Assembly: GCA_039621445.1 (NCBI GenBank)
Contig: CP154954.1
Location: 17,452,589-17,516,588 of the forward strand
Direction of reading: 5' to 3'
Length of the DNA stretch: 64,000 bases
DNA from: Euglena gracilis
Lineage: Eukaryota
Shown: piece by piece, positions 3,183 to 31,300 of the stretch
How positions within the stretch are numbered: the first letter of the stretch is position 1
Layout of the letters: every line of letters begins with the position of its first letter
The notes under the pieces: model-generated
Database searches by the model: none
What the model saw: the letters and a program-made list of their open reading frames with translations, nothing else
Told to the model about the DNA's origin: nothing
Position numbers and translations under genes: made by a program

Positions 3183-4629
3183 TAAACGTGTTCAGTCCAC
3201 GTTTATCGTCGCTGTACACGTGCACTGAACATGGTTTTTCACGACGCTGTACATCGTGGACCGTGTTGGGCCCAGAAAATAGGTTTAATGGTTGCCAAAT
3301 CACCCCTCAATTGAAAGTTCCTCGCATCAGACGACCAGCGATGACAAATGTATCTGGCCAAACTGTACAGAATGCTCATTCTGAACTTCCAGAAAATGAA
3401 ATGGGGTATCCTAAGTTCAGCCAGTTGTGATCATCTGACCGCAAAATTTAACCCTTGTCTGGTCCAAAACGCTTCCTGAACCCCATAACCAAAAATGTCG
3501 AAAAAAAAAGTGGAAATCCAAAATGTCCAAAAAAATTCACCAAAAATTCTGAATCTGACCAGCAACATATTTCAATGGAATGGAAAGCGACTGCCCTAAA
3601 CGGGCGCCTGAATGGAAATTGAACTGACTGACCTAAACAGGCGCCTGAATGGAAATCGACTGACCTAAATAAATTCAGCCTGAATTCCGTTTAAGTCAGT
3701 AGAAATTCAAGACAGGTGTCGGGCCCAGAAAATAGGTTTTAATGAAATTCCCCCTTTGTTTTTTTGATGTTTTTCAAACTGTTTTTTTTCCCCTTCAAAA
3801 AGCACGTTGTTTTTTTGAAAACAAAAAAATGCTCACTGTGGCTACTATGGCTGACTCTGTCCCCCTGGACGATGGCCTTGTTCGTACCCCCCCCCCTTTT
3901 CATTGCCCCCCCCCCCTTAATTAAGCATTTGGGTTTGGGAAGGAAAATGTTGCACATTTTTGGATCCCCCGCAATTGATATCACCCACATGTCTGCACAG
4001 ATGTTTTTCTTCAAAAAATGTCTTCCGCTCCGCAGATGACCCACACAATCCAGGTTGCTAATCCTTTTTTGAATTTGAACGTTGAACTCAGGTGGGAACC
4101 AAGGGAGGTCAGGTGGGGGGTCCAGACCTGCCCTGGTGAAGTTCATCAATGAAAGTTCACTGGGGATTGGGGGGGCACCCTTGGTTGGTGAACTTCACCG
4201 GTTCACCATTTTGACTGTCCGGAGATATTTTTTGATGCCTGAGAATTTTTGCTGTTTTCCCGACATAAATTACCTTTTCTCAAAATTTCTGAAGAGTTGC
4301 AAAAATGACATTTTCCCCCATTTTGGTCAAATTGCTTTGGTGGTGAACTTCACGGGTGAAGTTTGCCATTACATTGGGCAGAGGGGGGGGAGGGGGTCTA
4401 GTGAAGTTTCAAACGGTGAAGTCCACCATGAGGTTGGGGAGGGTCCAAAATGACCAAAGTCTGATCTCCAATGAATGCTGCTGGGGGGGACATGGGGGTC
4501 CATTTTTTGCCACAAAGGAAGTGGAAGGAGGGGTACACCCCAGAGATGGTGTGCATTCGCAATTTCATACCCAACCCAAAATTGTCTACCTCATGTCAAA
4601 ATTGTTGCTTGTGACACAAAAAATGCCAA

Positions 4630-8530: not shown

Positions 8531-8562
<32 letters not shown>

Positions 8563-11112: not shown

Positions 11113-12943
11113 CTTGGAAAACCAGGTGCGGAGCTCACGGACGCGGATGTCGGTGGCATGCCAGCGCTGGAAGAGGAAGGAAGCGGCTCCACACCGACTG
11201 CACCAGGCGGCGAGAGTACCCCCGCCAGATGGCGTTGCGGAAGATGTTGGCCACTGACTGCTTGAAATCCCCCATGTGGCTGCAGGCCATCCGGGCGAAC
11301 TCCAGGCGGCCCATGATGACCCCGCCCAGCTGCTCGGTGGGGGCGGTGGTGGTGGCTAGGGGGTAGCGAACAATGTGGTGGGGGTACTCCTCCTCCCGGT
11401 CGTGGACGGTGGTGTGCACCACGCGGTCCCCGTTGGAATGGCATTGGATGTACACCCGGACGCCCAGGCACACCACGGACTCGCCGGAGCCGGTGGTCTT
11501 GTACTCCATGCCGTACTCGGCTGCCGAGGGGAGGGGCATGGTGGTGGGGTGGACGATGTCGTCGATGTATCGGGACACGGCGGAGGACCGGAGCTGGGGA
11601 GGGAGGGCGTACATGTGGTCGCGCTCCACGGGGTAGCAGGCCAGGTTGGCCAGCTGCGGGGCCGGGGGGAGGCCCATGGGCATGCCCCGGATCTGGCGCC
11701 GGACCCTTCCGCCATTGCAGGTGTAGTTGTTCTGCACCGCCACGGCCACCAGCTCCTTCAGGTCATCCAAGGAGTAGCCGAGGCCATCCCACGACCAGCC
11801 GCCGGTGGTGAGGGACGGTGGGGTGGCGGGGTCCACCCCAGCGGGGGTCTTGGTCTCCCGCACGAAGGCCCAGGCCTCCTTGGCCGACTCCATGGTCCGC
11901 TCGATGATGGCGTCGAAGGTGAAGGCCGTGTACATCGTCGTGAAGTCCGCCGTCTCCAAGCCCCCCGCCAGGATGTCCTTGGAGTGGGTTCGGACCATCC
12001 GGACGAAAGACTCCACGCTGTCGATTCCCCAGAACGCCTTGATGCCCTCCTGCTGTTGCCGCCGCTCGTCCTTTTCCCGGAGGGCGACCTCGATGTGCTT
12101 CAGGAGCGACACCAAAGCCTTGCTCAGGGCATAGAGGGGCTGCCGGGGGGGCTCCTTGGAGGCGGTGGGGGCGGAGGCGGGGGCGGACTCAGAGGCGGGG
12201 GCGGGGGACCCGGGGTCGGGATCGGGGTTCTTGCGGGTCCCGGCAATGAACCGGAACTTCTTCTTCGCTGGCTTCCAGATGCCGTAGTTGTAGACGACAC
12301 CGGCGCCAGTGGGGAAGTGCAACCGCTGGTTGACCTCCGACAGCCGGGCAACCACCTCCCTCCAGGTGTCGGTCACGTCCTCGAACACGGTGGAGTCCGC
12401 CAGGTAGGTGGCCATCTGCTTCTGGTACCAGCGCTTGCAAACGAACATCAGGCCGTGGGGGGCCCGGTCGTCGTGGAGGAAGACGAGGACCTGGTGGGCC
12501 TCCCGCATTTGCTGTGACAGGCCCGGGAAGCCGGTGGGGACCAGCTCTTCTCTGACGGCCGAGCACCGCCAGTTGGTGGTGCAGCGGGCCTCCACGGCGT
12601 CGGCCCACTCGCCCAGCTTCCGGAGGTAGGTGGCGTCGGTGGGGTTGCTGCGCGCTGCCCACTCGGTGTACTGGTTCAGCGCCCGGCGGAGGTCGTGGAG
12701 GACGGTGTCGGGGGGGCCCTCCAGCCGGAACTTCTTCCCCTTGGCCGCCAGGGTTTGCAGGTACGACCATCGCAGCAGCTCGGACTCGTTGCTCACCACG
12801 TGGCCCTCGTGGAAGGCTGCCGGCTCCTTCCGGCGGAGGGCTGTGTGGCACTGGCAGCCCTCGAGGTCGTCGGCCTGCGCGGCGGCCACGTCCAGCTCGC
12901 TGGAGACCTGGGCGTAGTTGCACAGCCACGCCTGCCATTGCGG
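8531..12943 (-). mobile_element. Penelope-like retroelement family 1, copy A (5'-truncated, 3' end in (GA)n)
   Basis: Near-identical reverse complement of ~24313-29235 (without the MITE found in copy B); PLE-type RT motifs; ends ...CCAATCAAGAAGAGAGA(GA)n, seen as the TC run at 8531-8558. Confidence 0.9.
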
Positions 12944-12946
12944 CAC
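11135..12946 (-). CDS. PLE reverse transcriptase domain (copy A, N-terminally truncated)
   Basis: ADFTTMY, IRGMPMGLPPAPQLANL, RYIDDI, CLGV and upstream DDRAPHG (position of the PLE DK motif); frameshift near 11180-11210 relative to copy B. Confidence 0.88.
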   Translation of the reverse strand: MPQWQAWLCNYAQVSSELDVAAAQADDLEGCQCHTALRRKEPAAFHEGHVVSNESELLRWSYLQTLAAKGKKFRLEGPPDTVLHDLRRALNQYTEWAARSNPTDATYLRKLGEWADAVEARCTTNWRCSAVREELVPTGFPGLSQQMREAHQVLVFLHDDRAPHGLMFVCKRWYQKQMATYLADSTVFEDVTDTWREVVARLSEVNQRLHFPTGAGVVYNYGIWKPAKKKFRFIAGTRKNPDPDPGSPAPASESAPASAPTASKEPPRQPLYALSKALVSLLKHIEVALREKDERRQQQEGIKAFWGIDSVESFVRMVRTHSKDILAGGLETADFTTMYTAFTFDAIIERTMESAKEAWAFVRETKTPAGVDPATPPSLTTGGWSWDGLGYSLDDLKELVAVAVQNNYTCNGGRVRRQIRGMPMGLPPAPQLANLACYPVERDHMYALPPQLRSSAVSRYIDDIVHPTTMPLPSAAEYGMEYKTTGSGESVVCLGVRVYIQCHSNGDRVVHTTVHDREEEYPHHIVRYPLATTTAPTEQLGGVIMGRLEFARMACSHMGDFKQSVANIFRNAIWRGYSRRLVQSVWSRFLPLPALACHRHPRP

Positions 12947-13249
12947 CCCCTCCCCCAGGGGTTGGTGCTACGACCCCAGGACCGGCGGCTTAATTTGGGT
13001 ACTCACGCCCCAAGCCTTCGGGTGCCGTCCGTATTTTTCGGCAATTTTTGCCTCTTTCCACACCGAAAGGGCCTTGTCTCGCCCTCCCCAAAGGGTGCTG
13101 TCCCGGAGGGTGCCCCGTAGGTAGTGGACCATTTTTCCGTCCCGCGCTGCCTTGTTTTTGGGGCCGGTTTTTTTCAGCCCCCCCCCTCCCCCACCCCCGG
13201 GAGGGTGACGCAGAGCTCGTTTGTAACGGTCTGCACCACACAGACAAGA

Positions 13250-13322
13250 GCGGTCGGGGACGAGGGTTGGCAGGGTCGTCACCCCTGACGATGCCCCACC
13301 TGCCAGCCTGGGGCGAAACCGC
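13250..13322 (+). ncRNA. Type III hammerhead ribozyme (unit 1)
   Basis: Stem III GCGGT/ACCGC, GTC cleavage triplet (cut after 13255), stem I GGGGACGA/TCGTCACCC, core CTGACGA (13285-13291) plus one extra T, stem II GCCCCA/TGGGGC, GAAA (13315-13318); loops I and II are complementary. Confidence 0.9.
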
Positions 13323-13909
13323 AACACAGACTGACAACACACGCGCCCACACCGACTGACAACACACTTCCCCCACAAGCACACACTCTCGGGTCGGCAA
13401 GGAGTTCCCCCCAAGGAGTTCCCCCAGCAACACCGATTCAGAAGAGAGATTTACGCAGTGACCCTGCGTCCCATGGAGCTTTCCATGGCATTTTTCCCAG
13501 AATTGCATGGCGCGGTTGTTTCGCACCCCCATGCCTCGCCCCCAGCGCCCCATTTTGTGGGCTAAACCCGCGGCAGTTCTACTGAGCAACCGGCGGCTCA
13601 GGCCACCCCCTCCCCCAGGGGTTGGTGCTGCGACCCCAGGACCGGCGGCTTAATTTGGGTACTCGCGCCCCAAGCCTTCGGGTGCCGTCCGTATTTTTCG
13701 GCAATTTTTGCCTCTTTCCACACCGAAAGGGCCTTGTCTCGCCCTCCCCAAAGGGTGCTGTCCCGGAGGGTGCCCCGTAGGTAGTGGACCATTTTTCCGT
13801 CCCGCGCTGCCTTGTTTTTGGGGCCGGTTTTTTTCAGCCCCCCCCCTCCCCCACCCCCGGGAGGGTGACGCAGAGCTCGTTTGTAACGGTCTGCACCACA
13901 CAGACAAGA

Positions 13910-13982
13910 GCGGTCGGGGACGAGGGTTGGCAGGGTCGTCACCCCTGACGATGCCCCACCTGCCAGCCTGGGGCGAAACCGC
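13910..13982 (+). ncRNA. Type III hammerhead ribozyme (unit 2)
   Basis: Same sequence as 13250-13322. Confidence 0.9.
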
Positions 13983-14570
13983 AACACAGACTGACAACAC
14001 ACGCGCCCACACCGACTGACAACACACTTCCCCCACAAGCACACACTCTCGGGTCGGCAAGGAGTTCCCCCCAAGGAGTTCCCCCAGCAACACCGATTCA
14101 GAAGAGAGATTTACGCAGTGACCCTGCGTCCCATGGAGCTTTCCATGGCATTTTTCCCAGAATTGCATGGCGCGGTTGTTTCGCACCCCCATGCCTCGCC
14201 CCCAGCGCCCCATTTTGTGGGCTAAACCCGCGGCAGTTCTGCTGAGCAACCGGCGGCTCAGGCCACCCCCTCCCCCAGGGGTTGGTGCTGCGACCCCAGG
14301 ACCGGCGGCTTAATTTGGGTACTCGCGCCCCAAGCCTTCGGGTGCCGTCCGTATTTTTCGGCAATTTTTGCCTCTTTCCACACCGAAAGGGCCTTGTCTC
14401 GCCCTCCCCAAAGGGTGCTGTCCCGGAGGGTGCCCCGTAGGTAGTGGACCATTTTTCCGTCCCGCGCTGCCTTGTTTTTGGGGCCGGTTTTTTTCAGCCC
14501 CCCCCCCTCCCCCACCCCCGGGAGGGTGACGCAGAGCTCGTTTGTAACGGTCTGCACCACACAGACAAGA

Positions 14571-14643
14571 GCGGTCGGGGACGAGGGTTGGCAGGGTCGT
14601 CACCCCTGACGATGCCCCACCTGCCAGCCTGGGGCGAAACCGC
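14571..14643 (+). ncRNA. Type III hammerhead ribozyme (unit 3)
   Basis: Same sequence as 13250-13322. Confidence 0.9.
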
Positions 14644-15230
14644 AACACAGACTGACAACACACGCGCCCACACCGACTGACAACACACTTCCCCCACAAG
14701 CACACACTCTCGGGTCGGCAAGGAGTTCCCCCCAAGGAGTTCCCCCAGCAACACCGATTCAGAAGAGAGATTTACGCAGTGACCCTGCGTCCCATGGAGC
14801 TTTCCATGGCATTTTTCCCAGAATTGCATGGCGCGGTTGTTTCGCACCCCCATGCCTCGCCCCCAGCGCCCCATTTTGTGGGCTAAACCCGCGGCAGTTC
14901 TGCTGAGCAACCGGCGGCTCAGGCCACCCCCTCCCCCAGGGGTTGGTGCTGCGACCCCAGGACCGGCGGCTTAATTTGGGTACTCGCGCCCCAAGCCTTC
15001 GGGTGCCGTCCGTATTTTTCGGCAATTTTTGCCTCTTTCCACACCGAAAGGGCCTTGTCTCGCCCTCCCCAAAGGGTGCTGTCCCGGAGGGTGCCCCGTA
15101 GGTAGTGGACCATTTTTCCGTCCCGCGCTGCCTTGTTTTTGGGGCCGGTTTTTTTCAGCCCCCCCCCTCCCCCACCCCCGGGAGGGTGACGCAGAGCTCG
15201 TTTGTAACGGTCTGCACCACACAGACAAGA

Positions 15231-15303
15231 GCGGTCGGGGACGAGGGTTGGCAGGGTCGTCACCCCTGACGATGCCCCACCTGCCAGCCTGGGGCGAAAC
15301 CGC
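15231..15303 (+). ncRNA. Type III hammerhead ribozyme (unit 4)
   Basis: Same sequence as 13250-13322. Confidence 0.9.
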
Positions 15304-15881
15304 AACACAGACTGACAACACACGCGCCCACACCGACTGACAACACACTTCCCCCACAAGCACACACTCTCGGGTCGGCAAGGAGTTCCCCCCAAGGAGT
15401 TCCCCCAGCAACACCGATTCAGAAGAGAGATTTACGCAGTGACCCTGCGTCCCATGCAGCATTTTTCCCAGAATTGCATGGCGCGGTTGTTTCGCACCCC
15501 CATGCCTCGCCCCCAGCGCCCCATTTTGTGGGCTAAACCCGCGGCAGTTCTACTGAGCAACCGGCGGCTCAGGCCACCCCCTCCCCCAGGGGTTGGTGCT
15601 GCGACCCCAGGACCGGCGGCTTAATTTGGGTACTCGCGCCCCAAGCCTTCGGGTGCCGTCCGTATTTTTCGGCAATTTTTGCCTCTTTCCACACCGAAAG
15701 GGCCTTGTCTCGCCCTCCCCAAAGGGTGCTGTCCCGGAGGGTGCCCCGTAGGTAGTGGACCATTTTTCCGTCCCGCGCTGCCTTGTTTTTGGGGCCGGTT
15801 TTTTTTCAGCCCCCCCCCTCCCCCACCCCCGGGAGGGTGACGCAGAGCTCGTTTGTAACGGTCTGCACCACACAGACAAGA

Positions 15882-15954
15882 GCGGTCGGGGACGAGGGTT
15901 GGCAGGGTCGTCACCCCTGACGATGCCCCACCTGCCAGCCTGGGGCGAAACCGC
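15882..15954 (+). ncRNA. Type III hammerhead ribozyme (unit 5)
   Basis: Same sequence as 13250-13322. Confidence 0.9.
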
Positions 15955-16070
15955 AACACAGACTGACAACACACGCGCCCACACCGACTGACAACACACT
16001 TCCCCACAAGCACACACTCTCGGGTCGGCAAGGAGTTCCCCCCAAGGAGTTCCCCCAGCAACACCGATTC

Positions 16071-16534
16071 AGAAGAGAGAGAGAGAGAGAGGGGGGAGGA
16101 GAGAGGAGAGAGAGGCGAGAGAGAGAGAAGATGAGAGGAGGGGGGGAGCCGGGAGAAGAAAAGAGAGATGGAGAGGGAGAGGGAGAGAGAGAGGGGAGGG
16201 AGGGGGGGAGGCGCGGTCGAGGGGGAGAGGGTGAAGAGAAGGGGGGGGGGGGGAGGGGGGGGGGGGGGGTGGGGGAAGGGGGGGGGGTGGCGACGGGGGG
16301 GGGGGGGGGGGCTGAGGGTGGGGGAAAGGGGGGGAAGAGAGGGGGGGGAACGCGGAGGGGCAGGGGCGGGGCAGAGAGGGGGGGCGGGGGGGGGAGGGGC
16401 TGTGGAGCGGGACGGGGGGGGGGTGGAGAGAGGGAGGTGGCGTGGAGGGGGTGGGGTGGAGGGAGAGAAGAGGGGAGGGGGGGTGGTGGGGAGGAAGGGA
16501 GGGGGGAGAAAGGGCGGTGGATGGAGCGGGAGAG

Positions 16535-16565
<31 letters not shown>

Positions 16566-16640
16566 CAGGGAGAGAGGAGAGAGAGAGAGAGAGAGAGAGA
16601 GGCGAGAGGGAGGGCGAGCGGGGAGGTGGGAGAGAGAGGG
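16071..16640 (+). repeat. Polypurine (GA/G-rich) tract
   Basis: Almost pyrimidine-free on the + strand; (GA)n and poly-G runs. Confidence 0.9.
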
Positions 16641-16859
16641 GGGTGAAGAAGCAGAGCAGGCGACAACGCTGCGATCGCAGCAGAAGAGGGGCGAAGGCGG
16701 AGAGAGGCCGAGAAGATGGTACGGAGAGAGAGGTGTACAAGCTCCACCCAGAGCCGGAGAGGGGCAAGAGAGAGCGGAGGTGGGCAGAGCCAGCAGAGGC
16801 ACAAACCCATGCAGAGAGCCGAGAGAAGAGGGGGAGAGACTGGGGACGCAGGTGCGACC

Positions 16860-19700
16860 GAACGCCACGCTGGTGGAGGGGCACGTCCTCTCCACAGACC
16901 CCGACGAGCTGGCGTCCCCGTACCTGAGGGAGATCCTCAGCAAGGGGAAGAAGTACCGCCTGCGGCTGCCCATCTCGTCAGTGCTGGCGCGCCTCGACGA
17001 CGGCCTCCGCCAGTACGTGGAGTACAAGACCAAGGCCCACCAAGACGACGAGGGCTACCGCACGGGCCTGCTGAAGTGGGCGGAAGCGGTGCGGGCACGC
17101 GCAGAGGCCCGCATCACGCAGGCGGCGAGGGAGCACCCCCACGAGCCAGACGGGTACCCCAACCTGCAGGAGCAGCTCAGCGCAGCCAAGAGGGCGCTGG
17201 TGTTCGGGCCGGAGGACAGGGCACCGCACGCCCTGTTCTTCGCCTGCGGGCGGCTGTTCGCGGCGAAGCTGCACGAGCGGCTAGAAGCGACCGGGGCATT
17301 CGTCCCAGACGCCCGCCCGCCGGCGGACCTGCTGGAGCAGATCAAGGCCCTGAACGACGAGCTGCAGCTCCTCCACCACCCACGGCTGCCATACCTCTAT
17401 GGAGCATGGAAGGCCAAGAAGCAAGCCTTCCGCTGGATTGCCGGGACGGCCCGGAACCAGGACGAAGGCGACCATGAGGAAGAAGAAGGAAAGCCAAAGA
17501 ACGCCCTCTCCGAAGTGGGCGGCCTCATGGTCAAAGTGCTCCAAGTGGTGATGGCAACCCTGCGGCGAAAGGACCGGGAAGCAGTGGGCAAAGGCAACAA
17601 GTCCCGCTACTGGATCATCGAGGACATCGATGAGTTCGTGCAGGAGTTCCGGGTGCTGGCGCAAAGCCGAGCGCTGAGCGCCGTGCCGTGGGCAACGTAT
17701 GACTTCACCACCATGTACGAGGCGCTGGAGCACGAGCACCTGGTGCACGGGGTGATGGCAGCGGTGAAGGAGGCCTGGGAGGAGGAAACCATCGGCAAAG
17801 CACGGGACACGGGCCAACATCCACGAGACGTGGACCTACGCCTGGGGGCAGGGGGCTGGCACGAGGCGGCCAAGGTGAAGGACGCCCCCGGAATGCCGTG
17901 GTTCACGCTGCCGAGGGTGGAGGACACCCTGCGCAAGATGCTGGCCAACCTGTACGCGGTGAACGGCGGGGTGGTGCGGAAGCAGCAAAAGGGAGTACCC
18001 ATGGGGCTGGAGTGCTCCCCGCAGCTGGCCAACCTGTACGCCTACGCCGTGGAGAGCAGGTGGGTGGACCGAACGGCACCGACCAACGTCCTGATGCGGC
18101 GGTACATCGACGACATCATCGTCATGGGACCAGATGCCCTCACCCCCGGGAAAGGGCTGCCCACCGAGGAGGACTACGGGATGCAGTACAAGTCCACCGC
18201 CGAGGAGCCCCACAGCCTCATCTACCTGGGGGTGCGGCTGTTCGTGGACGACCGCGGACAAGCCCACTCGGTCCTGCACGACCGTGCAGTGGACTACCCC
18301 ATCCGGGTGGACCGATACCCCGAGGGCACAACAGTGGCCAACCCAGCCCAGCTGGCAGGCGTCATCATGGGCCGGTTGGTGGCAGCCCAACGGACATGCA
18401 GCCGCATGGATCTGTTCCAAGACGCGGTGGCCGGCATCTTCACCCACGCGCATCGCAGGGGATACCCACGGAGAATGGTGCACTCCACGTGGACCCGGTT
18501 CCTGTGGCGGTACTGGGACGCGGCATCCGTCACCACGCGGGAACTGCGGGCGTGGTTCCACGACGCGTGGCGAAAGGTGACGGAAGCGGAGGAGGGGGGA
18601 CAGCGCAAGCCGGCCCCCAAGTGGCCAACGTGGGAAGCCCGCGTACCACTGCCGCGGGACAGTGGCAGGGGAACACCACAGCACCCACCACCGCGGGACG
18701 CAGCAGGGCACCAGGCAGCATGTGAGGGGACCCCCCAGCCCCAAGCAGCACAACGGGAGCCCATCGACGACCTCATCGACCTCACCACGCCACCGGGGTC
18801 CCCGCCACACGCAAGCCCAGGCGACGGGGAGCCGCAGGGCGGCTCCTCGCAACCAGCCAGCAGCTACCGCCCGATGGCACCGCCGCTGATACCGTACCCC
18901 CTCCCACCGAGCGGCAGGGGAGGGGTGGGGCCAACCAGGACCGGACGACCAGGACAGAGGGGGGCAGGGCAGAAAGGCAACATACCGCCGAGAAGGCCGT
19001 GGTCTTCACCGGTGTACCCCACGCGGGGGGCTGCCAGCTCGTCGTCGACTTGGGCCGAAAAGGCTGTGCGATGGGGCTGTCCGCCTTCCGAGTCGCTGCC
19101 ACTGCACGCCCCTCTCGCACAGGAGCGTGCAGTGGGGGGCGCACTCTCCCCACGAGCACAGCCACCTCACGTCCCTGTCGCCGAAACACGGTGCACAGCG
19201 AGCACACAGGAGCGGGAGGTGGCCGGCGCTTCCCCCACACCCACCACACAGACATCAGCGGCGACGCCAACCAGCCAGCAGCCACCAACAACCACAGTGC
19301 AGCAGCCGCTGCAAGTGGTCCAGGTGCCCCAACCGTACCCGGTGCCGGTGCCGGTGCCCACCCCCTGTCCCGTGCCGGTGTACGTCGAGCGCGTGGTGCC
19401 GGTACAGATCCCAGTGCCATACCACGTACCCGTGCCGGTGGTCGTGGAGCGCGCAGTGCCCACACCGTACCCGGTGCCGGTGCACGTGGAGCGCCTGGTG
19501 CCAGTGGAACGCCCACTCCCGCTGCCGTGGCTGGACACCGGGGCAGTGACCGCGCTGCTCCGGGGGGCGAGCGCACAGCTGCCCATGCCAGTCCAACGCC
19601 TGATCCAAGCGGTCAGCAGCACCACCGGGCCGACGAGGGCCCGGTGGCAGCGGGAGATGGGGCGACCACAGCCTTACCCGGCGGAAGGAGCAGTGGACCC
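16860..19700 (+). CDS. PLE family 2 reverse transcriptase and PVPV repeat region
   Basis: Inside ORF 16168..20736: EGHV..KGKKYRL, EDRAPHA, WKAKKQAFRWIAGT, DFTTMY, YIDD, QLAGVIMGRL, RRGYPRRMV all align with family 1. The coding frame appears to switch near 19630-19790. Confidence 0.8.
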
Positions 19701-19779
19701 CCAACGGGCACTGCTCGTCGAAATGGTGCGATGGATCTGGCAGCAGCAACAGCAGCAGCAAGAGAGCCGCCCCTCACCC

Positions 19780-22029
19780 ATCGCGCCACGCTGGCGATCG
19801 AAGACGCACCCACCGCAGCCACACCCACATCGCCCGCGGCAGGCACCACCCCGGCAGGAGCAGCACCACCACCAAGCAACAACCCACCACCACCCGCAAC
19901 GGAAGGGGCCAGCACCACCGCCACGCCAGCAGCACCAGGCAGCACCAGCCCCGCGCCCGCAGCAGCAGCAGCAAGCAGCACGCCGGCCCCACCAACACCA
20001 ACCACAAGCGCCACACCGCCACCGAGCGCCACCCCCACGCAGGAAGCACAAAGCACCACAGCCACCGAGGAGGCACCGGCAAGAAGCGACCCCATGGCCA
20101 CAGACCGACTCCTGGGCAACAAGCGCCCAGTGTCGGTGGTGGTGGAGGAGGCGGCCACACCACAGCCCACCGAAGGGGACGATGCCTCGCAGGCAACCCA
20201 ACCAAGCCAACGCAAGAAGAGGCTGTACACACGCTTGGCCGAGTGGCCGGCAGAGTGGCGGGAGCAGTACGAGCGGTTCAAGGCCACGCCCAAAGCAAGC
20301 GACCGCCACGAGATGTGGCAGGGGTGGGACCAAAGCCTCCAAGACCAAGTGTGGGCAGCCGTCGCCGACAAGCGGAGGGACGAGATCCGCCGATGGAAGG
20401 CGAGGGAGAACGAAGGCCCACCAACCCAAGCAGAAGGCCAAGCCAGAAGCACGCGAGAAGAGAGGCGGAGGTCCCACACCGGAGCGGCAGACGAAGGTGG
20501 AGAACCCACCAGCCACGACTGGCAAGAAGGCCAGCGCATCGGGGAGGCGAAGCAGCCAGGCCCAGAAGAGGAAGGGTCGGCAGCGGACCCCCCCGAGGGG
20601 CAAGCGGGGAGCCCAAAGAATCACCCGCGACCGGCCTGGGGCGGCTCTCCAGGGGTACCTGCCGATCACCGGCAGGGCGTGTCCCGGCACGCCGTCAATC
20701 GGGACCCCAACAAAACAGAACCCACCAGCACCATGAACACAAAAATCACAGGCATGCCAGGCAATGACGGCCTGCCCGGCGCAGAGGACCTCTGCCCCGG
20801 GTGGCAGGCGGGGCGCCAGCCTAAGAACCCGCAACCGATCTGGGGCGGATCTCCAGGGGTACCTGCCAATCACTGGCAGGGCGTGGCCCGACACGCCGTC
20901 AAGTGGGACGAAGGAGCAGAAGAACCGTGCCCCAGAAGCAGAAGCCAAGACCAGCACGACTGGAAGAAAGGGGCACGGATCGGGGAAGCAAAGAACCCCG
21001 GACCACCCCAAAGAGGGTACCAACAGCCCAACCCAAAAGGGGGGGCCCAGCGAGGAGGACAACAAACAGGAAAAGGACAGACACAGCCCAGGAAAGGAGG
21101 CAAGGGTGGCAAAGGAAACGTCACCCCACAAGGAAGCCGGCAGGGCCAACCCCAAGGAGAGGGCTGGCAAACAGCACAAAGCACCGGCCGAAAACGCCTC
21201 CAAAAGCGCCTCCAAGGGCTCCAACGGGCGCTGCAAGAAATGCAGCAAGAGCTCGACCAATGGCGGCAGAATCCGCCCCCGCAGCAGCAGCAGCAACGAC
21301 CGGACCTAAGGGACGACAACCCCTGGGCCCCCCTGCAGCCACAGCAACAACGCCGGGAGCGGAAGAGATCCATTGGGTTTGAACCCCCAAGCCGCCAAGC
21401 GAGCAGGCAGCCGCCAGAGCAACGAGGAGGACGCGGAGGACGGGGAGGACGAGGTCGTGGACGAGGCGACGGAGCCCAAGATCGACACGGCCATGGAGAT
21501 CCCCGAAACCCGCGTGCCGGGCACGGAACTTGCCAGCCGTGCCCGTCATGCGGGTACCAGAACGAGGTGTACCACGCCGACGGGGCCCTGGGGGGTGGGG
21601 GGCTCGCCGGCGGTGGCATCCCCGGGCCCCCGGGCCCTGGCGCGGGGTCCGGGGGTGGCGTGAAAGGCGTGCGGAGCCCATGGGGGGAGCGCCGCCCCCC
21701 CAGCACGCACGCACGCACGGGGACCGCCACACACCCACCAGCAGGCAAGGGAGGGGGAGGGGGAAGGGGCAGCCCAGCGCGCCAGACAGACGGGCATCCG
21801 GAGGACCGGCGGCCAAGGGAGGGGGGAGGGGGAAAGGGATGGGCAGCCCAGAGCGCCAGACAGACGGGCAGCCACCGGGGGACAGGAGGCCAAGGGAGGG
21901 GGGAGGGGGAAAGGGAAAGGCAGCCCACGTGGAGAGAGAGAGGGGGAGGGGAGAGAGGAGGACAGACAGAGGGGAGAGGGGGGAGAGGGAGGAGAGAGGG
22001 AGAGAGGGAGGAGAGAGGAGAGGAGAGGT

Positions 22030-22030
<1 letters not shown>
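19780..22030 (+). CDS. PLE family 2 post-RT extension with two 2A-like motifs and a coiled coil
   Basis: Frame of ORF 18999..22190: LAIEDAP, KKRLYTRLAEWPAEWREQYE, HDWQEGQRIGEAKQPGP, HDWKKGARIGEAKNPGP, LQKRLQGLQRALQEMQQEL, NPWAPLQ, GIPGPP; open into the (GA)n run. Confidence 0.7.
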
Positions 22031-22184
<154 letters not shown>

Positions 22185-22363
22185 CGCTGACCCCGGCACC
22201 TGAGAAGAGCAAGGGGAAGAGAAGGCTCAAGACGGGCCCAAGCAAGACGACCAAGAAGGGAGTGGGGAAAAGGCCGGTGAGGGTCCCCATGAGGAGCCCA
22301 ACCCCCCGTGCCGGGGCGACTCCCTGTCGACAACTTCTTCCGCGGAGTACGATGCAAGAGAAT

Positions 22364-22420
<57 letters not shown>

Positions 22421-22669
22421 TGACCACCTTCACGCCAAGGAGTGGGGCGAGTGGCCCCCGGGGTCCCCGCTCCTGGCAACCGGAGTTCCTGGGCCGTTCC
22501 TCGGGTGACGGCAGCACCCGAGGGCCATGCAACACGCGGAGCCGCTCTCCAGGTGGGTGCCCACGGGGCTTTATCTCGCCTGCCTGGATGGAGCCGTGGG
22601 TGGCCCTGAGGGTCCGCATACCCTTGGGTCCCATGACTCGCCCACCCGCGGAACATGAGCGCCCCGTCA

Positions 22670-22745
22670 CCAGGCGGTCTGCCCCCACCAGCCGGGCGTC
22701 GGGGGCATCGACAAGGAAGGCCCGGCTGGATCCGAAACCGCCTGG
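22670..22745 (+). ncRNA. Type III hammerhead-like ribozyme with variant core (TCGACAA)
   Basis: Stem III CCAGGCGGT/ACCGCCTGG, GTC site, stem I TGCCCCC/GGGGGCA, core TCGACAA (22708-22714), stem II GGA/TCC, GAAA; perfect 10-bp loop-loop complement CCAGCCGGGC/GCCCGGCTGG. Confidence 0.75.
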
Positions 22746-22764
22746 CTCTTTTACCGCTGTGTGC

Positions 22765-22829
<65 letters not shown>

Positions 22830-22841
<12 letters not shown>

Positions 22842-25800
22842 CAAGGGCCGGCCCCCCTCCGATCCCCTCTCATCCCAACCCATGGGATCCCCTTCAAGGC
22901 CATCGTCGCGGCGGACGGCGTCGGCAACGGCGGCAGAAGGAGACCATGACCAGCACGGACGCCGAGGCGGCGACATCGCAGGTGTGCCACCCCCGGCCTG
23001 CCGGAGCTGGTATCTCCGGCCCTCCAGTTCGGGCCGCACCGGCTGGAGGTGGGCGTGCAACCCGTGCGAGGCCTCCCCCCTCTGCGGCACCCCCCCACCT
23101 CCCTCCCCATCCCCTCCCATCCCCACCCCCACCCACACCCAGAATCCCCCGTCCATACCAATCAAGAAGAGAGATTTCCGCAGTCCCTGCGGCTCGGGGA
23201 GCTTTCCCCGGGGTCCACCGTGAATTGCCTGGCGAGGTTTCTCGCACCCCCAGGCCTCCCCCCGAGCGCCCTCCCGGGCAACCCTCTTCCCGAAGGCCCC
23301 CCAGGCCGTCCCACTCCCGTGATGACCGTGCCCTCCCCATCGCCGAGCCCTACGACAAGCACGACCCCCAGCCGTCCCGCCACCGCCGCAACGAGGGGCA
23401 GTGGAGCTGGCAGGACCACCTGCAGTGGATGCAACGCAGCTGGGGGCGGCGATCTTGGCGCAACAAGACCATGCGCAGGGTCCTGCAGCTCCGCTCCAGC
23501 GACTCAGCCAACGCCGCCGTGGACTGGGGCGACGTGGCCGCCCTGTGGGATGCCCCCGGCTGGATTTACGCCCTCTTCCACTTCCCCACGGGGCGACTGT
23601 ACGTCGGGCAGACCACCCGGAAGGTTTACAAGCGGGCCAAGGAGCACTGGTGGAGCCGGGGGCGCTGCGCCGACGCCCTGCACGACGCCCTGGCCAACGA
23701 CCCCACCCCCTTCTCCTTCCTCATGATCCCCATCGAGAGGCTCCCCTCACCCGACAGCTTCCCCCGGGCTGACCGCCGCGCCCTCGCCCGCCGGGATGCC
23801 CTCGCCCGCGAGCGCAAGTGGGTGGGCCTCCTCAACTCCATGTGGCCCCATGGCTTCAACGCCGCCTACCCCGGCTTCCCCGTCAGCCGGAAGGTGCTCC
23901 GCCGCCAGCACACCCTCCCCAGCCCCGATCCCGCCCCCACATCCCAAGGCGACCCCCCGCCCAGCCCCGACCTAACCAAGTGGCTCCGTCGCTGCCACCA
24001 AGGGGACTCCAGCGCCCTGGCGGAGGCACGCTCCTGGGGCAAGGCGCGGCTGTGTTCCACCCTGGACTGGCTGCAGCAGCACGTCCCGGACGACGAGCGG
24101 CGCTCCGGCCACCTCTCGCTGGAGTGCAAGCTGGTGGAGCTGATCAAGGCGAAGAGGAAGGAGGCCCCCGAGCGGCAGTTCCTGAAGTTCTCCTACTCCA
24201 ACAACGGCGCCCGCCACCTGGAGCTGCGCAAGGTGTTGCGGGAAGAGGCCGTCTACAAGCTCCACCCCAACCCGGACGTCGCCGCAGCCATCATGGTCTG
24301 CGACAAGTTCGCCCCGCAATGGCAGGCGTGGCTCTGCAATTACGCCCAGGTCTCCAGCGAGCTGGACGTGGCCGCCGCACAGACCGACGACCTCGAGGGC
24401 TGCCAGTGCCACACAGCCCTCCGCCGGAAGGAGCCGGCAGCCTTCCACGAGGGCCACGTGGTGAGCAACGAGTCAGAGCTGCTGCGGTGGACGTACTTGC
24501 AGACCCTCGCGGCCAAGGGGAAGAAGTTCCGGCTGGAGGGCCCCCCTGACACCGTTCTCCATGACCTCCGCCGGGCGCTGAACCAGTACACCGAGTGGGC
24601 AGCGCGCAGCAACCCCACCGACGCCACCTACCTCCGGAAGCTGGGCGAGTGGGCCGATGCCGTGGAGGCCCGCTGCACCACCAACTGGCGGTGCTCGGCC
24701 ATCAGAGAAGAGCTGGTCCCCACCGGCTTCCCGGGCCTGTCACAGCAAATGCGGGAGGCTCACCAGGTCCTCGTCTTCCTCCACGACGACCGGGCCCCCC
24801 ACGGCTTGATGTTCGTTTGCAAGCGCTGGTACCAGAAGCAGATGGCCACCTACCTGGCGGACTCCACCGTGTTCGAGGACGTGACCGACACCTGGAGGGA
24901 GGTGGTTGCCCGGCTGTCGGAGGTCAACCAGCGGTTGCACTTCCCCACTGGCGCCGGTGTCGTCTACAACTACGGCATCTGGAAGCCAGCGAAGAAGAAG
25001 TTCCGGTTCATTGCCGGGACCCGCAAGAACCCCGACCCCGACCCCGGATCCCCCGCCCCCGCCTCGGAGTCCGCCCCCGCCTCCGCCCCCACCGCCTCCA
25101 AGGAGCCACCCCGGCAGCCCCTCTATGCCCTGAGCAAGGCTTTGGTGTCGCTCCTGAAGCACATCGAGGTCGCCCTCCGGGAAAAGGACGAGCGGCGGCA
25201 ACAGCAGGAGGGCATCAAGGCGTTCTGGGGAATCGACAGTGTGGAGTCTTTCGTCCGGATGGTCCGAACCCACTCCAAGGACATCCTGGCGGGGGGCTTG
25301 GAGACGGCGGACTTCACGACGATGTACACGGCCTTCACCTTCGACGCCATCATCGAGCGGACCATGGAGTCGGCCAAGGAGGCCTGGGCCTTCGTGCGGG
25401 AGACCAAGACCCCCGCTGGGGTGGACCCTGCCACCCCACCGTCCCTCACCACCGGCGGCTGGTCGTGGGATGGCCTCGGCTACTCCTTGGATGACCTGAA
25501 GGAGCTGGTGGGCGGTGCAGAACAACTACAGCTGCAATGGCGGAAGGGTCCGGCGCTAGATCCGGGGCATGCCCATGGGCCTCCCCCGGCCCCGCAGCTG
25601 GCCAATCTGGCCTGCTACCCCGTGGAGCGCGACCACATGTACGCCCTCCCTCCCCAGCTCCGGTCCTCCGCCGTGTCCCGATACATCGACGACATCGTCC
25701 ACCCCACCACCATGCCCCTCCCCTCGGCAGCCGAGTACGGCATGGAGTACAAGACCACCGGCTCCGGCGAGTCCGTGGTGTGCCTGGGCGTCCGGGTGTA

Positions 25801-26265
25801 CATCCAATGCCATTCCAACGGGGACCGCGTGGTGCACACCACCGTCCACGACCGGGAGGAGGAGTACCCCCACCACATTGTCCGCTACCCCCTAGCCACC
25901 ACCACCGCCCCCACCGAGCAGCTGGGCGGGGTCATCATGGGCCGCCTGGAGTTCGCCCGGATGGCCTGCAGCCACATGGGGGATTTCAAGCAGTCAGTGG
26001 CCAACATCTTCCGCAACGCCATCTGGCGGGGGTACTCCCGTCGGCTGGTGCAGTCGGTGTGGAGCCGCTTCCTCTTCCAGCGCTGGCATGCCACCGACAT
26101 CCGCGTCCGTGAGCTCCGCACCTGGTTTTCCAAGGTGTGGAAGTGGCTCCACTCCAGCCCCCACCGCGCTCCCCCAGCCCCATGGGCCACAGCCCTCCCC
26201 CTCGATGAGGCCCATGCCCCCTCCCAGGCCGACTTTCTCTCCGTCTTCGGCCACCCCGCACCCCC
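22830..26265 (+). CDS. PLE polyprotein: N-terminal GIY-YIG endonuclease, Cys/His linker, RT (locally frameshifted)
   Basis: GWIYALFHFPTGRLYVGQT...RAKEH...ERKWVGLLNSMWPHGFN (23558-23860) matches the GIY-YIG pattern including R, H, E, N residues; CQCH...HEGH linker; DFTTMY; YIDD. The GMPMG motif is out of frame through compensating indels. EN-before-RT order is that of Naiad/Chlamys-type PLEs. Confidence 0.85.
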
Positions 26266-27787
26266 CCCTCCCCGGGGGCATCGACGACTTGCTGGCCGAG
26301 ATGACGCCGCCCCCTTCCCCCTCCGCCTCCCAGCCCTCCGACGTGGATGTGATGATCATCGACCGGGAGGCCCACGTGCGCCACGGCAAGCAGCAGGCCC
26401 CGAGAGGAGCGTCCCGATCCGTCCACTGGCCAGGGCTCAGAGAGGGGGACGCCCCAGAGGTGAGGTGCGCCCAATTCGTGAGCAGCAAGGGCAAGGACCC
26501 GGGGGTGATGCCGCCAAGGATCCCGCCCCCGGCGAGCCCGGGCGAGCCTCTACCGATCAGTCAAGAGGAGGGGGACGCCCCAAACAGCCGCAGCACCAGG
26601 CCGGCCCACACCGGGGCGGGGTTTACGCCGGGCAGTGAACCGGGGGTGACGCCGCCAAGGATCCCGCCCCCGGGGAGCCCGGGCGGGCCTGAGGACAGCG
26701 AGGGGGACGCCCCGAGCCACGGACTGGCCCACACCGTGACGGGGTTTACGTCGGGCTGTGAACTGGGGGTGACGCCGCCAAGGATCTCAGCCCCAGGGAG
26801 CCCGGGCGGGTCCGTGATCGTGCTGCCAGGGCCGGCCTCAGAGCCGAGGGGGGACGCCCCAAGCGACAGGCTGGCCCACACCGGAGCGGGGTTTACGCTG
26901 GGCGGTGAACCGGGGGTGACGCCGCCAAGGATCTCGCCCCCGGGGAGCCCGGGCGGGCCTGAGAGTTGCCAGCCCACGGCCATGGAGACAGAGACGGACG
27001 CCCTCGAGGGGGTTGCAGCGCAGCCAAGCACCGCCTCCCAATCCCCCAGCGCCCCAACGGCCCCCACAGCCTCCCAAGGCCCCCCTCTCTCCAACCCGGA
27101 CTCCGCCTCCCCAACCCCATGCCTCCCCCCACCCACCCGTGAGGTCCTCCAGGAGCGGGTTGTCATCATCGAGAGGCAGGTCCCCGTTCCCGTGCGGGAG
27201 CCTGTCTTCGTGGATCGGGTCATCGAGCGGGTCGTCCCGGTCCCGGTGCAAGTCCCCGTGGAGGTCCGGGTCCCCATGCCCGTCCCCGTCCCCGTGGAGG
27301 TCCGGGTACCCATCCCCATCTACCTCCCTCCCTCCGCACCACAAGCCCCCTCCATCGTGCAGAATGTGCATCTCAACGCACTCACCATCGGCCCCTCCTC
27401 CTCCTCGTCTTCCTTGGCCCTCCTCCAAGGTCTCCCCATTCCCGCCATCGAGGCCCCCAACCGCCTCCTCCTCACCGCTCCCCCGCCACCACCCAGCGAC
27501 ACCACCGACGACGACACCTCTTCCCAAGGCCCCACGAAGAAGAGGAAGTTCACTTCGTTGAGTGAGTGGCCTGCCGAGTGGCGAGCCAAGTACGAAGAGT
27601 GGAAGGCGGTGCTGAAGGACCCACGAGAAGTAGGACGAGGACAAGCCATGTACGAATCATGGGACCCGGACCTGCAGAACCAGGTCTGGGCCTCGTGCGG
27701 CCCCCAGCGGCGGAGCATCATCCAAGAATGGCAAGAAGCCGCAGCAGCCCAGAACGTCGAGCGCCCCGCGGACCTCGAGCGCCAGAC

Positions 27788-28307
27788 CAGGGAATTTCTT
27801 AAGGACCCCCCGGGGGGGGGGGGGGGTCCAGCCTCCGGCTGGCAAAAAGGCTGCTGGCTGGATTTGAGCTGCTGGCTGGACCCCCCCCCCCGGGGGGGTG
27901 GGGGGGGGGGGGGGGGGGGGGGGGTCCGGGGCTGGAGCGGGCTGGGCTGGGCTGGGTCGAGGAAAAACAAAATTTTCTAACACATTTTGGCCATTTTCGA
28001 CATTTTGATGGGTGGAGCTAGATCAAGGCTGGGGGGCTGTGATGGAGGGGCTGTGATGAGGGGGAAAAATGCAGGGATAAGTGAGCTGGACAGCCCGGTT
28101 GGCTGGCCGGCCTGCGGCCGGCTGGGCCGGCCTTCGGCCGGCTGGCCCGGCCTCCGGCCGGGCTGGACCCGACTTTATTTCACTCGACCCCCCGGGGGGG
28201 GGGGGCTCCCAGCCCAAATTTGGGCTGCTGGCTGGATTTGAGCTGCTGGCTGGCTGGACCCCCCCCCCCCGGGGGGTAGGGTACCCTCCGGCTTAAGAAA
28301 TTCCCTG
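27788..28307. mobile_element. hAT-like MITE inserted in PLE copy B
   Basis: Perfect 16-bp TIR CAGGGAATTTCTTAAG; 8-bp TSD CGCCAGAC (27780-27787, 28308-28315); copy A has the empty site. Confidence 0.93.
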
Positions 28308-31300
28308 CGCCAGACGCATGACTGGCATGAAGGTGCCAGGATCGGGGAGGCCGACCACCCCGGTCCAAGGCGCCACCCCCACGGCCCCCACCAGGGCCAC
28401 CAACCCTCCGGGAGCCACGTCCCCGGAGTGAGACCGAGCCAAGTCCGGGCGGGTGGCAGGCAGCGTGGTGCCTGTGCCCCGCCAACCCCGTCCGCAGGGG
28501 AGCAAGCGAAGCGGGATTTGCCCCGGCCCCAAGCCCCTTGGCGACCCAACAGGGAAGCGGCCCGTGGGCGCCGCCCTGGGGATTCTTTTTCTTCAGCAGC
28601 CATGAGATCTTCTAGACCCTCTCGCCCTGGGAGTGCGCAGGGCAACCCAACCCGAGGAGAAGAAAGAGACCGAAGAGACGAAGGTGTCGCATGGACACCG
28701 GTGCAGAGCCGGCGAGGGGCGGCGCTGCACAAGGAGATCAAGAGGATGGCGGACAGCATCTCCGCCCTCAGCGAAGAGCTGAAGAAGCTACAAGAAAAAT
28801 GCCAAGCTCAACGCCACTTTCGGGGGGAGTCGGAGCCCCCAACCACATCAAGACCATCGCGGAGAGGAGAGAGAGAGAGAGAGAGGGAGGCAAGGGCCGG
28901 CCCCCCTCCGATCCCCTCTCATCCCAACCCATGGGATCCCCTTCAAGGCCATCGTCGCGGCGGACGGCGTCGGCAACGGCGGCAGAAGGAGACCATGACC
29001 AGCACGGACGCCGAGGCGGCGACATCGCAGGTGTGCCACCCCCGGCCTGCCGGAGCTGGTATCTCCGGCCCTCCAGTTCGGGCCGCACCGGCTGGAGGTG
29101 GGCGTGCAACCCGTGCGAGGCCTCCCCCCTCTGCGGCACCCCCCCACCTCCCTCCCCATCCCCTCCCATCCCCACCCCCACCCACACCCAGAATCCCCCG
29201 TCCATACCAATCAAGAAGAGAGAGAGAGAGAGAGAAAATGAGGTTTGGTGAGGTCAGCTTTTTTGATTCAGTGAGAGTTTTTGAGTAACCCCCCTAAAAT
29301 AATGTACACCCTCTGCCCCAGACTTCGGTGACAAAACAACATACCCTCCCTGCCGCCACTGGGAGAGGGAAATCAAGCAGGTTTGTCAATCTCTCTCCAA
29401 AACATCATATTTTGGCAAAAAATGACTGGTAGGTTCAATTCCTTTACAAAACCAAAAAGGTAACAATGAATTCTAATTCACAGAATAAACCCCACATAAA
29501 AAAATTAAAAATTGATTTTTCAAAAAAAAACGAAATATACAAAAAATGAAAAATTGCCAAATAGGCAAGAATATGAACAATTGCGCAAAACAATGGATAA
29601 ACATGGAACATTTGAGGGGAAATGTGACTTTTGCCATCTCCAGTGCATAGCACTAGGAGAAATTTTTCGTGGTTATGTCTTTCAGTCAAGGAGGGAAGGA
29701 GGGGGAGCTCCAGAGCCACCTCCCAACACCTGGGGTGGTGATCCGGACACCCCCCGCCACCACTTTGACCCCTCGGGAGGGTCGGGATCCCCACTCCAAC
29801 CATCCTCACTCACTACCCTACTCACCACCTTCCAGAATGCTGAAGGGCTTCCTGTCGATCCCGGGGGGGGGGGGGGTGGTTGGGACCCGAACTCGCTGCC
29901 TGGCCTCCTTCTGTGTAGTGTGTAGGAAGCGGATTTGTCCTTCCCCTTCGGGAATTTGTCCCTTCTGGTAGTGCCTGCAAAAAAAGGGACGTGCAGAGCC
30001 TTACGCTTCCTGTGTACCTCCTGGCACGGCTGGTGTTCAGTTCACCAAGTTCTTAGACAGCCGGGAATGCATTTTTCTTGTTGAGTCACAAAATTCTGGC
30101 AGTTTTTTTTGAAAATGCGCATCCGCGCATTTCGGAAGCGAAGTGCGCAGGTGCGCATTCTGAATGGTTTGATGCCTCTTCCAGACTGGGGCTAAACACC
30201 ACAAAAATGAGCTGTTTGGATTTAACACGACCACAGAGGTTCACTGTTGTTTACTGGTTCAGGACACCGGTTCGGGAGGGAAAGACCCCAAATGAAAAGT
30301 GCCAAAAGGTGTGCAAAATGCTTTGTGGACATGTGGCACAGAAAAGGCAGAACGGAAAAAATTACTGGGATTATCGGCAAGTTTCTTTTGTGATGTGCTT
30401 GTGCCTGACTCATGGTCTCAAGGGCCTGGGGAAAGTTTGGGGCAAGGACTGACCAGTGGTGTTCGCTTCTTTGAGTCCATTTGGATTGTGAAATAATTCC
30501 GTGTTCACAGACCGTTTTTGGGAATGATGCTAAAGGTGGCGACAGGGGTGTTTCACTCTCGAGGTGCCAACCCAGTGAGCACCGTGTGTGGAACCAGACA
30601 CAATCCCGTGTGCTAATTGTGGGGCACAGTGCTCCTTGCACCGTGCACCGCAGCCCAACGTAAGGCAGTTCAGGGGGCCCATCAGCTGCGTGCTGCCATG
30701 CATGCTCTGGGGCGCGGGGTCAGACAACGTTGGCATCAACCGGCCCATCACCTCCGCCGGGTGGGGGACGGTTGCACGTGCGTTGTGGCGTGTTTCACGT
30801 GTTCATGAGAGTAGTGTAAGCTAGGCTGGGCACTGGATTGCAGTGGGCGAAGTGGAATGCGCAAGTGCACATTCTGATTTGTTCGGTGACTTGCCCTGCA
30901 GGGGGCAGTTACCTTGTCACTGAAGGACATGAATTCGTGCCTTGACACCTGGCATCGCCGAGAACAGGGATTTCCACGCCGTTGTAGGTGTCGCGTTTCA
31001 GGGTGTGGTCTGATATAGCGACATTGTTACCAAGGGTGATTTTTTTGATTCACCTCCCCCTCGCACACCCATGTTCTGCAAGCCCGAAAGCCACACCATA
31101 GCGGTGCACAACTCAGATTCAAGGCAGGCAAACAACAGGCCATACCCAGTGCGTCCTTCAACATCAATGTGCGTGTGCGCATTCCCTCCTTCCCACAGCC
31201 TGTGTCCATTCCAAAACAAATGCGCACCTGCGCATTTTTTTGGGTTTGACACTCGGTGGCACCCCTATTGACCTTGGGATTGGGAGGGCTGTGTCTCTAT

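Follow-up and report, generated by a model that had tools for sequence, protein, structure and literature searches.

The sequence analysed is a stretch of 64,000 nucleotides of Euglena gracilis contig CP154954.1 (the window), and positions are counted from its first letter. Between 8.5 and 29.2 kb it holds a GC-rich block of nested retroelements, with a GC content of 0.60-0.70 in 2-kb bins versus about 0.37-0.59 elsewhere. Copy A (8534-12943, minus strand) is an inverted, 5'-truncated element of family 2 that is 92-99% complementary to 24314-29242 and adjoins an array of 660-bp units. Copy B (16846-22366, plus strand) is a 5'-truncated Penelope-like element of family 1 with a (GA)n end and an identity of 96-99% to residues 285-1949 of P0001; P0001 is the protein EG_transcript_109, to which one open reading frame is 99% identical. 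Copy C (23175-29236, plus strand) is a full-length family-2 Penelope-like element with an N-terminal GIY-YIG and an end in (GA)n. It is preceded by the 334-bp 3' tail of a family-2 element (22841-23174, plus strand), and 22818-23117 is 100% identical to 28867-29166. P0001 contains, in order, a GIY-YIG-like motif at its start, a CxC motif and a reverse transcriptase; copy C is 33% identical to it over residues 2-860 and has a GIY-YIG-like N-terminal start of its own. One relative carries GIY-YIG together with Josephin, and others carry UCH. All units of the nest finish in a GA-rich tail leading into (GA)n, and the terminal GA-rich letters were the only ones in common when five element 3' ends were aligned. 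A protein-guided scan of the metagenome_contigs collection confirmed one of 190 candidate stretches, and this locus (L001) consisted of the open reading frame only, with no flanks.

The tail of copy B contains a 350-bp, 5'-truncated copy of a further repeat (22419-22768, plus strand), which lies between (GA)25 on its 5' side (22367-22417) and (GA)36 on its 3' side (22769-22840). By blastn the piece is a single copy within the window, and it is missing from the corresponding places of copies A and C. None of the 24 candidates scored when the translated piece was compared with proteins. The piece is linked to the Penelope-like elements by its position among elements with GIY-YIG and reverse transcriptase, by their GA-rich 3' end, which it shares, and by its insertion into (GA)n. 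A hammerhead-shaped motif ends 23 nt before the 3' end of this copy.

The motif (22670-22745, plus strand) is a type III junction with a variant core, in which stems I, II and III have 7, 3 and 9 bp and the junction strands have 1, 7 and 3 nt. The 5' strand of stem III, CCAGGCGGU (22670-22678), ends in U16.1 and forms 9 bp with the 3' strand, ACCGCCUGG (22737-22745), which starts with A15.1; U16.1-A15.1 is the closing pair. The GUC triplet occupies 22677-22679, with C17 at 22679, and the predicted cut lies 3' of C22679 by analogy with hammerhead numbering. In the stem I hairpin (22680-22707), UGCCCCC (22680-22686) forms 7 bp with GGGGGCA (22701-22707) around the 14-nt loop 1 (22687-22700). The core heptamer UCGACAA (22708-22714) is read as U3 C4 G5 A6 C7 A8 A9 and is followed by the stem II hairpin (22715-22733), in which GGA (22715-22717) and UCC (22731-22733) form 3 bp, with G10.1-C11.1, around the 13-nt loop 2 (22718-22730). 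G12 A13 A14 (22734-22736) and A15.1 together give GAAA at 22734-22737, and A22737 pairs with U22678. The loop 1 sequence CCAGCCGGGC (22688-22697) is the exact reverse complement of the loop 2 sequence GCCCGGCUGG (22720-22729) over 10 bp.

The strand lengths at this junction are those of a hammerhead (N17, 1 nt; positions 3-9, 7 nt; positions 12-14, 3 nt). GUC agrees with the N-U-H cleavage triplet, and both G12 A13 A14 and the A15.1-U16.1 pair are present. In regards to the conserved core C3 U4 G5 A6 N7 G8 A9, the motif departs from three of the six specified letters, with U3, C4 and A8 in their place; it matches 8 of 11 conserved core letters and retains the 3-8 pair. The 19 pairs of the stems and the 10 pairs between the loops are without a mismatch. 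Our own descriptor scan recovers 22670-22745 with stems of 7/3/9 bp and 3 core mismatches, and none of the other core registers checked by eye has fewer deviations. Direct reading of the letters thus bears out the three stems, GUC, GAAA and TCGACAA core described in a first-pass annotation of this locus. Its remark that C4 is an extra deviation also stands: U3-A8 keeps the 3-8 pair, whereas C4 is uncompensated. Search descriptors take core position 4 as invariant, and to our knowledge U4 is otherwise invariant.

The same nest contains a second repeat with a canonical hammerhead core. The array next to copy A (12944-16080, plus strand) consists of 4.8 tandem units of 660 bp, each with a canonical-core type III hammerhead. 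The five hammerheads (13250-13322, 13910-13982, 14571-14643, 15231-15303 and 15882-15954, plus strand) are identical over 73 nt and have the full core CUGACGA, an extra U between A9 and 10.1, GAAA and GUC. A partial-pattern search gave 5 matches versus 0.21 expected, all five of them from this one array. Their loops match each other over 10-11 bp with a sequence unrelated to that of the variant; counting G-U, the run has 11 pairs, was attained in 93 of 100,000 shuffles and has a duplex energy of -21.8 kcal/mol. The 660-bp unit is 76% identical to family 2 over some 100 nt at the 5' end and 80% identical over some 40 nt at the 3' end, and from these shared ends it looks like a non-autonomous partner of the family-2 element. 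About 590 bp of low-complexity sequence (16074-16660), rich in GA and G and with runs of more than 15 G, separate the last unit from copy B.

We compared the variant motif with shuffled sequences. The loose descriptor, which allows up to 3 core mismatches and is weak by itself, gave 19 matches in the 64-kb window, whereas 30 block shuffles yielded 5.0 on average and 10 at most. Across 200 shuffled windows, 1128 matches were counted, 18 of which had summed stems of at least 19 bp (about 0.09 per window). A 10-bp loop-loop run was attained in 42 of 100,000 shuffles of both loops. These descriptor counts and the loop-shuffle result place the stems and the loop match jointly far beyond chance. The folding z-score of the motif was -3.1, and 2 of 200 shuffles folded equally well. 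The structure at 22670-22745 is real; the case for a hammerhead is built on the details of the junction and on the context.

The nested minimum-free-energy fold of the motif (-43.0 kcal/mol) consists of stem III and the loop-loop helix and leaves the core partly buried. The hammerhead secondary structure alone has -29.9 kcal/mol and the loop duplex -25.2 kcal/mol. A nested algorithm is unable to hold stem I and the loop pairing simultaneously; the hammerhead fold and the loop duplex summed (-29.9 + -25.2 kcal/mol) lie lower than the nested alternative. The canonical neighbour shows the same pattern (-22.7 vs -36.0 kcal/mol). In prefix folding, the stem I hairpin of the variant is the earliest to form (-14.6 kcal/mol). 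The term kissing interaction, used in the first-pass annotation for the 10 bp, goes too far: what is seen is a complementarity, and nested folding makes it an alternative helix that hides the core. We infer a hammerhead clamped by a pseudoknot, which may change over to the long helix once it has cut. A helix of 10 bp formed by two closed loops of 13-14 nt may be under steric strain.

None of the 4227 Rfam families reached its gathering score anywhere in the window, and no Rfam hammerhead was found at 22670-22745 up to E = 10. The expectation that standard searches would miss the motif is correct for these covariance models. The same models also missed the five canonical-core copies nearby (13250-13322 and the others), again up to E = 10, so the negative result says little; the Rfam miss therefore reflects the unusual loops and not the absence of a hammerhead. 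A covariance model of our own (R1), which was built from the five identical canonical copies and is over-specific (effective sequence number 1.12), gave no significant match to the variant (plus strand, 11.7 bits, E = 2, row 28 of 64). R1 scored the minus strand of the variant higher (17.5 bits, E = 0.096). This higher score is due to a likeness of 13 of 16 letters (our own count) between 22699-22714 on the minus strand, which covers the variant core and stem I, and 13281-13296 on the plus strand, which covers the canonical core and stem II. The likeness is probably a coincidence of GC runs around the TCGA palindrome. A minus-strand hammerhead was rejected: it is without GAAA, has a 3-nt junction at the cut site and has the core UUGUCGA. 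The motif with a free core was also sought in the viral_contigs and metagenome_contigs collections, with no match.

The variant and the canonical motifs have two stretches in common, GCGGUC at the cut site and CGAAACCGC in the 3' part. Beyond these they cannot be aligned with each other. In a blastn comparison of the 660-bp unit and the 350-bp piece with the window, no similarity was found between the two families. With this null result and the R1 score of 11.7 bits (E = 2), the kinship of the two motifs is therefore architectural, not statistical.

A weak hammerhead-like three-way junction lies in the 3' untranslated end of copy B (22258-22324, plus strand), about 42 nt before the element end. 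Its core is AUGAGGA, GAC replaces GAAA, and 15.1-16.1 is C-G; R1 gave 15.3 bits there (E = 0.3 window-wide), which is not significant. The TCGACAA heptamer occurs again at 22328-22334. Elsewhere in the window, a minus-strand CTGATGA...GAAA match with stems of 3/4/3 bp (48927-48996) falls within GGTGAAGTTCAC-type palindromic repeats and was judged a chance match. Other repeats of the window are an array of about 56 copies of the 11-bp unit GTCCTGGGGGG (44208-44817), palindromic repeats of 34-63 bp (45857-45992 and 47119-47195) and a 32-bp tandem unit at three places (60779-60921, 61537-61704 and 3578-3669).

The 350-bp piece is present in 20 of the 24 public runs listed (17 studies), some of which are very small and two of which are recorded as RNA. 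We compared it with four runs (X1, X5, X10 and X19), each of which consists of contigs; such contigs drop rare variants and show no RNA ends. X1 gave 765 contigs, of which 331 have an identity of at least 99%, 279 of 95-99%, 133 of 90-95% and 22 below 90%; X5, X10 and X19 gave 4, 11 and 1, respectively. Over the 108 positions from 22661 to 22768, which include the motif and its core, no alternative letter reaches at least 5% in the contigs of the four runs. Alternative letters of at least 5% were found at 15 positions (17 rows), all inside 22538-22660. The first 119 nt of the fragment (22419-22537) are likewise free of such letters, so the conservation is not specific to the motif. Two substitutions at 22629-22630, outside the motif, are private to the window copy compared with essentially all contigs of the four runs. 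According to the first-pass annotation, canonical-core copies elsewhere, together with a lack of cleavage, would mark this one as decayed; no such copy type reaches at least 5% in the contigs of the four runs. These results indicate that the motif is not a lone decayed copy and that UCGACAA is the family's own core.

The contigs also reveal how the units are joined. In one contig of X5, a guessed DNA run, and in one of X19, an RNA-library run, 22768 is joined back to 22419 with 542 letters between them, which gives a unit of about 892 nt in a head-to-tail or circular arrangement. The contig of X19 has 922 nt and carries the 30 letters of 22681-22710 at both ends; it fits a circle, a tandem transcript or DNA carry-over. 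Head-to-tail multimers are thus documented by the contig joints, and the window itself holds one truncated copy. Contigs run through the predicted cut site in all four runs. The insert had been proposed to belong to a second satellite family. A second repeat family is indeed present, with a unit of about 892 nt and the 765 contigs of X1, but a Penelope-linked repeat that inserted, 5'-truncated, into a (GA)n tract describes the piece better than a plain satellite does.

The published data on the three core changes, cited here from excerpts of the sources, bear on the ability of the variant core to cut. U3-A8 covariation occurs in several natural ribozymes that are reported active (Perreault 2011, PMC3088659), and the U3-A8 core variant accounts for about 1,300 Schistosoma hits among hammerheads of Penelope-like elements (Cervera and De la Pena 2014, PMC4209133). 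The argument that positions 3 and 8 pair in the active fold, with U3-A8 as a compensatory change, is established. In regards to U4C, a viroid with this change remained infectious, and the change markedly lowers in vitro activity (PMC3088659). When the single and double mutants of a type III hammerhead were scanned comprehensively, those in the CUGA turn had low activity throughout, with the C3G/G8C swap as the exception (PMC9901934). These mutational data argue for weakened catalysis of the UCGACAA core. The motif may still self-cleave usefully, a claim to which we give slightly less than an even chance.

The reading that we prefer, though tentatively and at just under even likelihood, is that the motif descends from a real hammerhead and is the consensus 3'-end module of a very abundant repeat, about 0.9 kb long, which is arranged head to tail and dependent on Penelope-like elements. 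Descent from a hammerhead is supported by the presence of everything except three core bases (junction strands of 1/7/3 nt, GUC, GAA, A15.1-U16.1 and G10.1-C11.1) and by the fact that two of the three changes restore a 3-8 Watson-Crick pair. The reading is further supported by the canonical-core family with the same type III layout 7-9 kb upstream, by the lack of any alternative core letter of at least 5% in the contigs of the four runs, and by the unit joint in both the guessed DNA run and the RNA-library run. The setting is also like that of published Penelope-like elements, whose hammerheads lie close to the 3' end or within pseudo-LTRs and whose insertion sites are microsatellites (PMC8557442, PMC4209133).

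We infer a cycle of cleavage, circularisation and mobilisation in trans. The repeat arrays would be transcribed into multimers. Stem I would fold earliest, and the loop 2 strand would then pair with loop 1 and hold the short stem II beside stem I, with the U3-A8 pair standing in for C3-G8. The RNA would cut itself 3' of C22679, more slowly than with a canonical core owing to C4, and would free RNA of unit length. This RNA could be circularised, or copied into (GA)n targets by the reverse transcriptase of a Penelope-like element. The window copy would have been dead on arrival, a 5'-truncated piece inserted into another element's (GA)n tail. The complete proposal is that the U3-C4...A8 hammerhead is catalytically active, serves as the consensus ribozyme in a repeat that ranks among the most abundant of this euglenid genome, is held by an exceptionally long Watson-Crick clamp of 10 bp between its loops, and gives rise to RNAs of about 0.9 kb, linear or circular, which Penelope-like elements with N-terminal GIY-YIG mobilise into (GA)n; taken as a whole, we regard it as rather unlikely.

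The main rival, a serious one to which we give clearly less than an even chance but which is far from improbable, is that the motif is a dead hammerhead relic. According to this explanation C4, with or without U3-A8, ended useful cleavage, and amplification continued since cleavage was dispensable; the uniformity of the family would then come from its youth, or from another role of the folded 3' end such as recognition by reverse transcriptase. The low activity of CUGA-turn mutants (PMC9901934) and the effect of U4C (PMC3088659) fit this explanation. A lizard Penelope-like element also agrees with it: hammerhead mutants left in vitro insertion unaffected, no reads ended at the cut site, and hammerhead cleavage needed protein (PMC11167929, excerpts). 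As insertion of the lizard element is independent of the hammerhead, amplification is no proof of activity. Hammerheads are mostly absent from those Penelope-like elements whose endonuclease is N-terminal, and Naiad and Chlamys thrive in this state, according to the excerpted account of Craig et al. 2021 (PMC8557442); with cleavage dispensable for the lizard element and most N-terminal-endonuclease elements hammerhead-free, a dead motif could still be amplified. The equal invariance of the motif and of the fragment's 5' 119 nt and the contigs that span the cut site in all four runs are further points for a relic. Against it, selection for the active fold, and not free drift, predicts a paired change such as that at positions 3 and 8; the 19 stem pairs and 10 loop-loop pairs are all perfect; and GUC, GAA, A15.1-U16.1 and G10.1-C11.1 are intact. 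That the motif is no hammerhead at all, and is a GC-rich structured piece of repeat (a long loop-loop-helix hairpin or a generic three-way junction) with a chance likeness at three mismatches, is improbable: the 1128 loose matches in 200 shuffled windows (18 with summed stems of at least 19 bp), the nested minimum-free-energy helix, the lack of an Rfam match and the preference of R1 for the minus strand (17.5 vs 11.7 bits) are in its favour, but the junction strand lengths, the 8 of 11 conserved core letters and the retained 3-8 pair fit a hammerhead, a canonical core occurs in the same layout, element nest and strand, the 3' end of Penelope-linked repeats is a known hammerhead site, and the minus strand has neither GAAA nor a proper cut-site junction.

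If the motif is active, a family-wide C4 with U3-A8 would show that strong tertiary clamping buys tolerance in the U-turn, and genome scans would undercount hammerheads. If the proposal is true, the locus would represent the first retrozyme-like cycle of a protist, would tie type III hammerheads to a Naiad/Chlamys-type clade thought to be hammerhead-free, and would call for a core consensus wider at position 4 than the accepted one. The interest would be considerably higher if cleavage were shown. Whether the motif cleaves or not, the locus documents three things that were not found in the open-access literature searched, namely euglenid Penelope-like elements with an N-terminal endonuclease, their short hammerhead-bearing partner families and the habit of insertion into (GA)n. 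The E. gracilis assembly contains 32.7% unclassified repeats, and the paper describing it is without the words Penelope, PLE and satellite; the Penelope-linked families found here may make up part of this fraction.

Among the nearest known systems are the hammerheads of Penelope-like elements, which likewise lie in or beside the elements, near their ends and in tandem, and for which U3-A8 is reported (PMC4209133). The extra nucleotide between A9 and 10.1 of the canonical 660-bp family is listed as typical of Penelope-like hammerheads in the same source. In the excerpts of that account, however, the motifs are type I or minimal and thought to be dimeric, whereas the variant is type III with a stable 9-bp stem III. 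Compared with them, the variant adds C4 and a 10-bp Watson-Crick loop match, and its elements have an N-terminal GIY-YIG and a euglenid host.

In regards to the elements, the Naiad/Chlamys clade (PMC8557442) is like those of the window in its GIY-YIG-like start, CxC motif and reverse transcriptase, and like this locus in its partial tandems, inverted 5'-truncated copy and microsatellite bias. The Josephin and UCH domains of relatives are counted as a further likeness to this clade (PMC8557442). The clade targets (CA)n, (C)n or (TA)n and is mostly without canonical hammerheads according to the excerpted account (PMC8557442), whereas the elements of the window have (GA)n ends and short hammerhead-bearing partners; the excerpts of PMC8557442 name no euglenid.

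Animal non-LTR retrozymes are derivatives of Penelope-like elements (bioRxiv 10.64898/2026.07.22.740005). Retrozymes are like the present repeat in being non-coding, non-autonomous, tandem and a few hundred to 1000 nt long and in carrying a hammerhead, and cutting to unit length followed by circularisation has been proposed for them. In plant LTR retrozymes a non-coding core is flanked by a pair of LTRs, both about 350 bp long and bearing a type III hammerhead. At the present locus the 350-bp piece is unique in the window and is flanked by (GA)n repeats only, with no LTRs. Plant LTR retrozymes share the type III hammerhead with the variant, whereas those of animal retrozymes are type I (bioRxiv 10.64898/2026.07.22.740005); neither the variant core nor a protist host appears in the excerpts of this account.

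About 40% of hammerheads have a pseudoknot that joins stems I and II (Perreault 2011, PMC3088659). Those tested in that study, as excerpted, have about 4-6 bp, whereas the loop match of the variant has 10 bp. Its excerpts mention the core variants U3-A8 and U4C singly and do not mention the combination of U3, C4 and A8, for which no report was found in the open-access literature searched. The same literature yielded no case of a type III hammerhead as the partner of a Penelope-like element with N-terminal endonuclease, and no hammerhead, retrozyme or Penelope-like element of a euglenid. Penelope-like hammerheads, U3-A8, U4C, pseudoknotted hammerheads and non-autonomous retrozymes are thus each precedented singly, and what is new at this locus is only the combination of U3-A8 with U4C and the setting in which it occurs.
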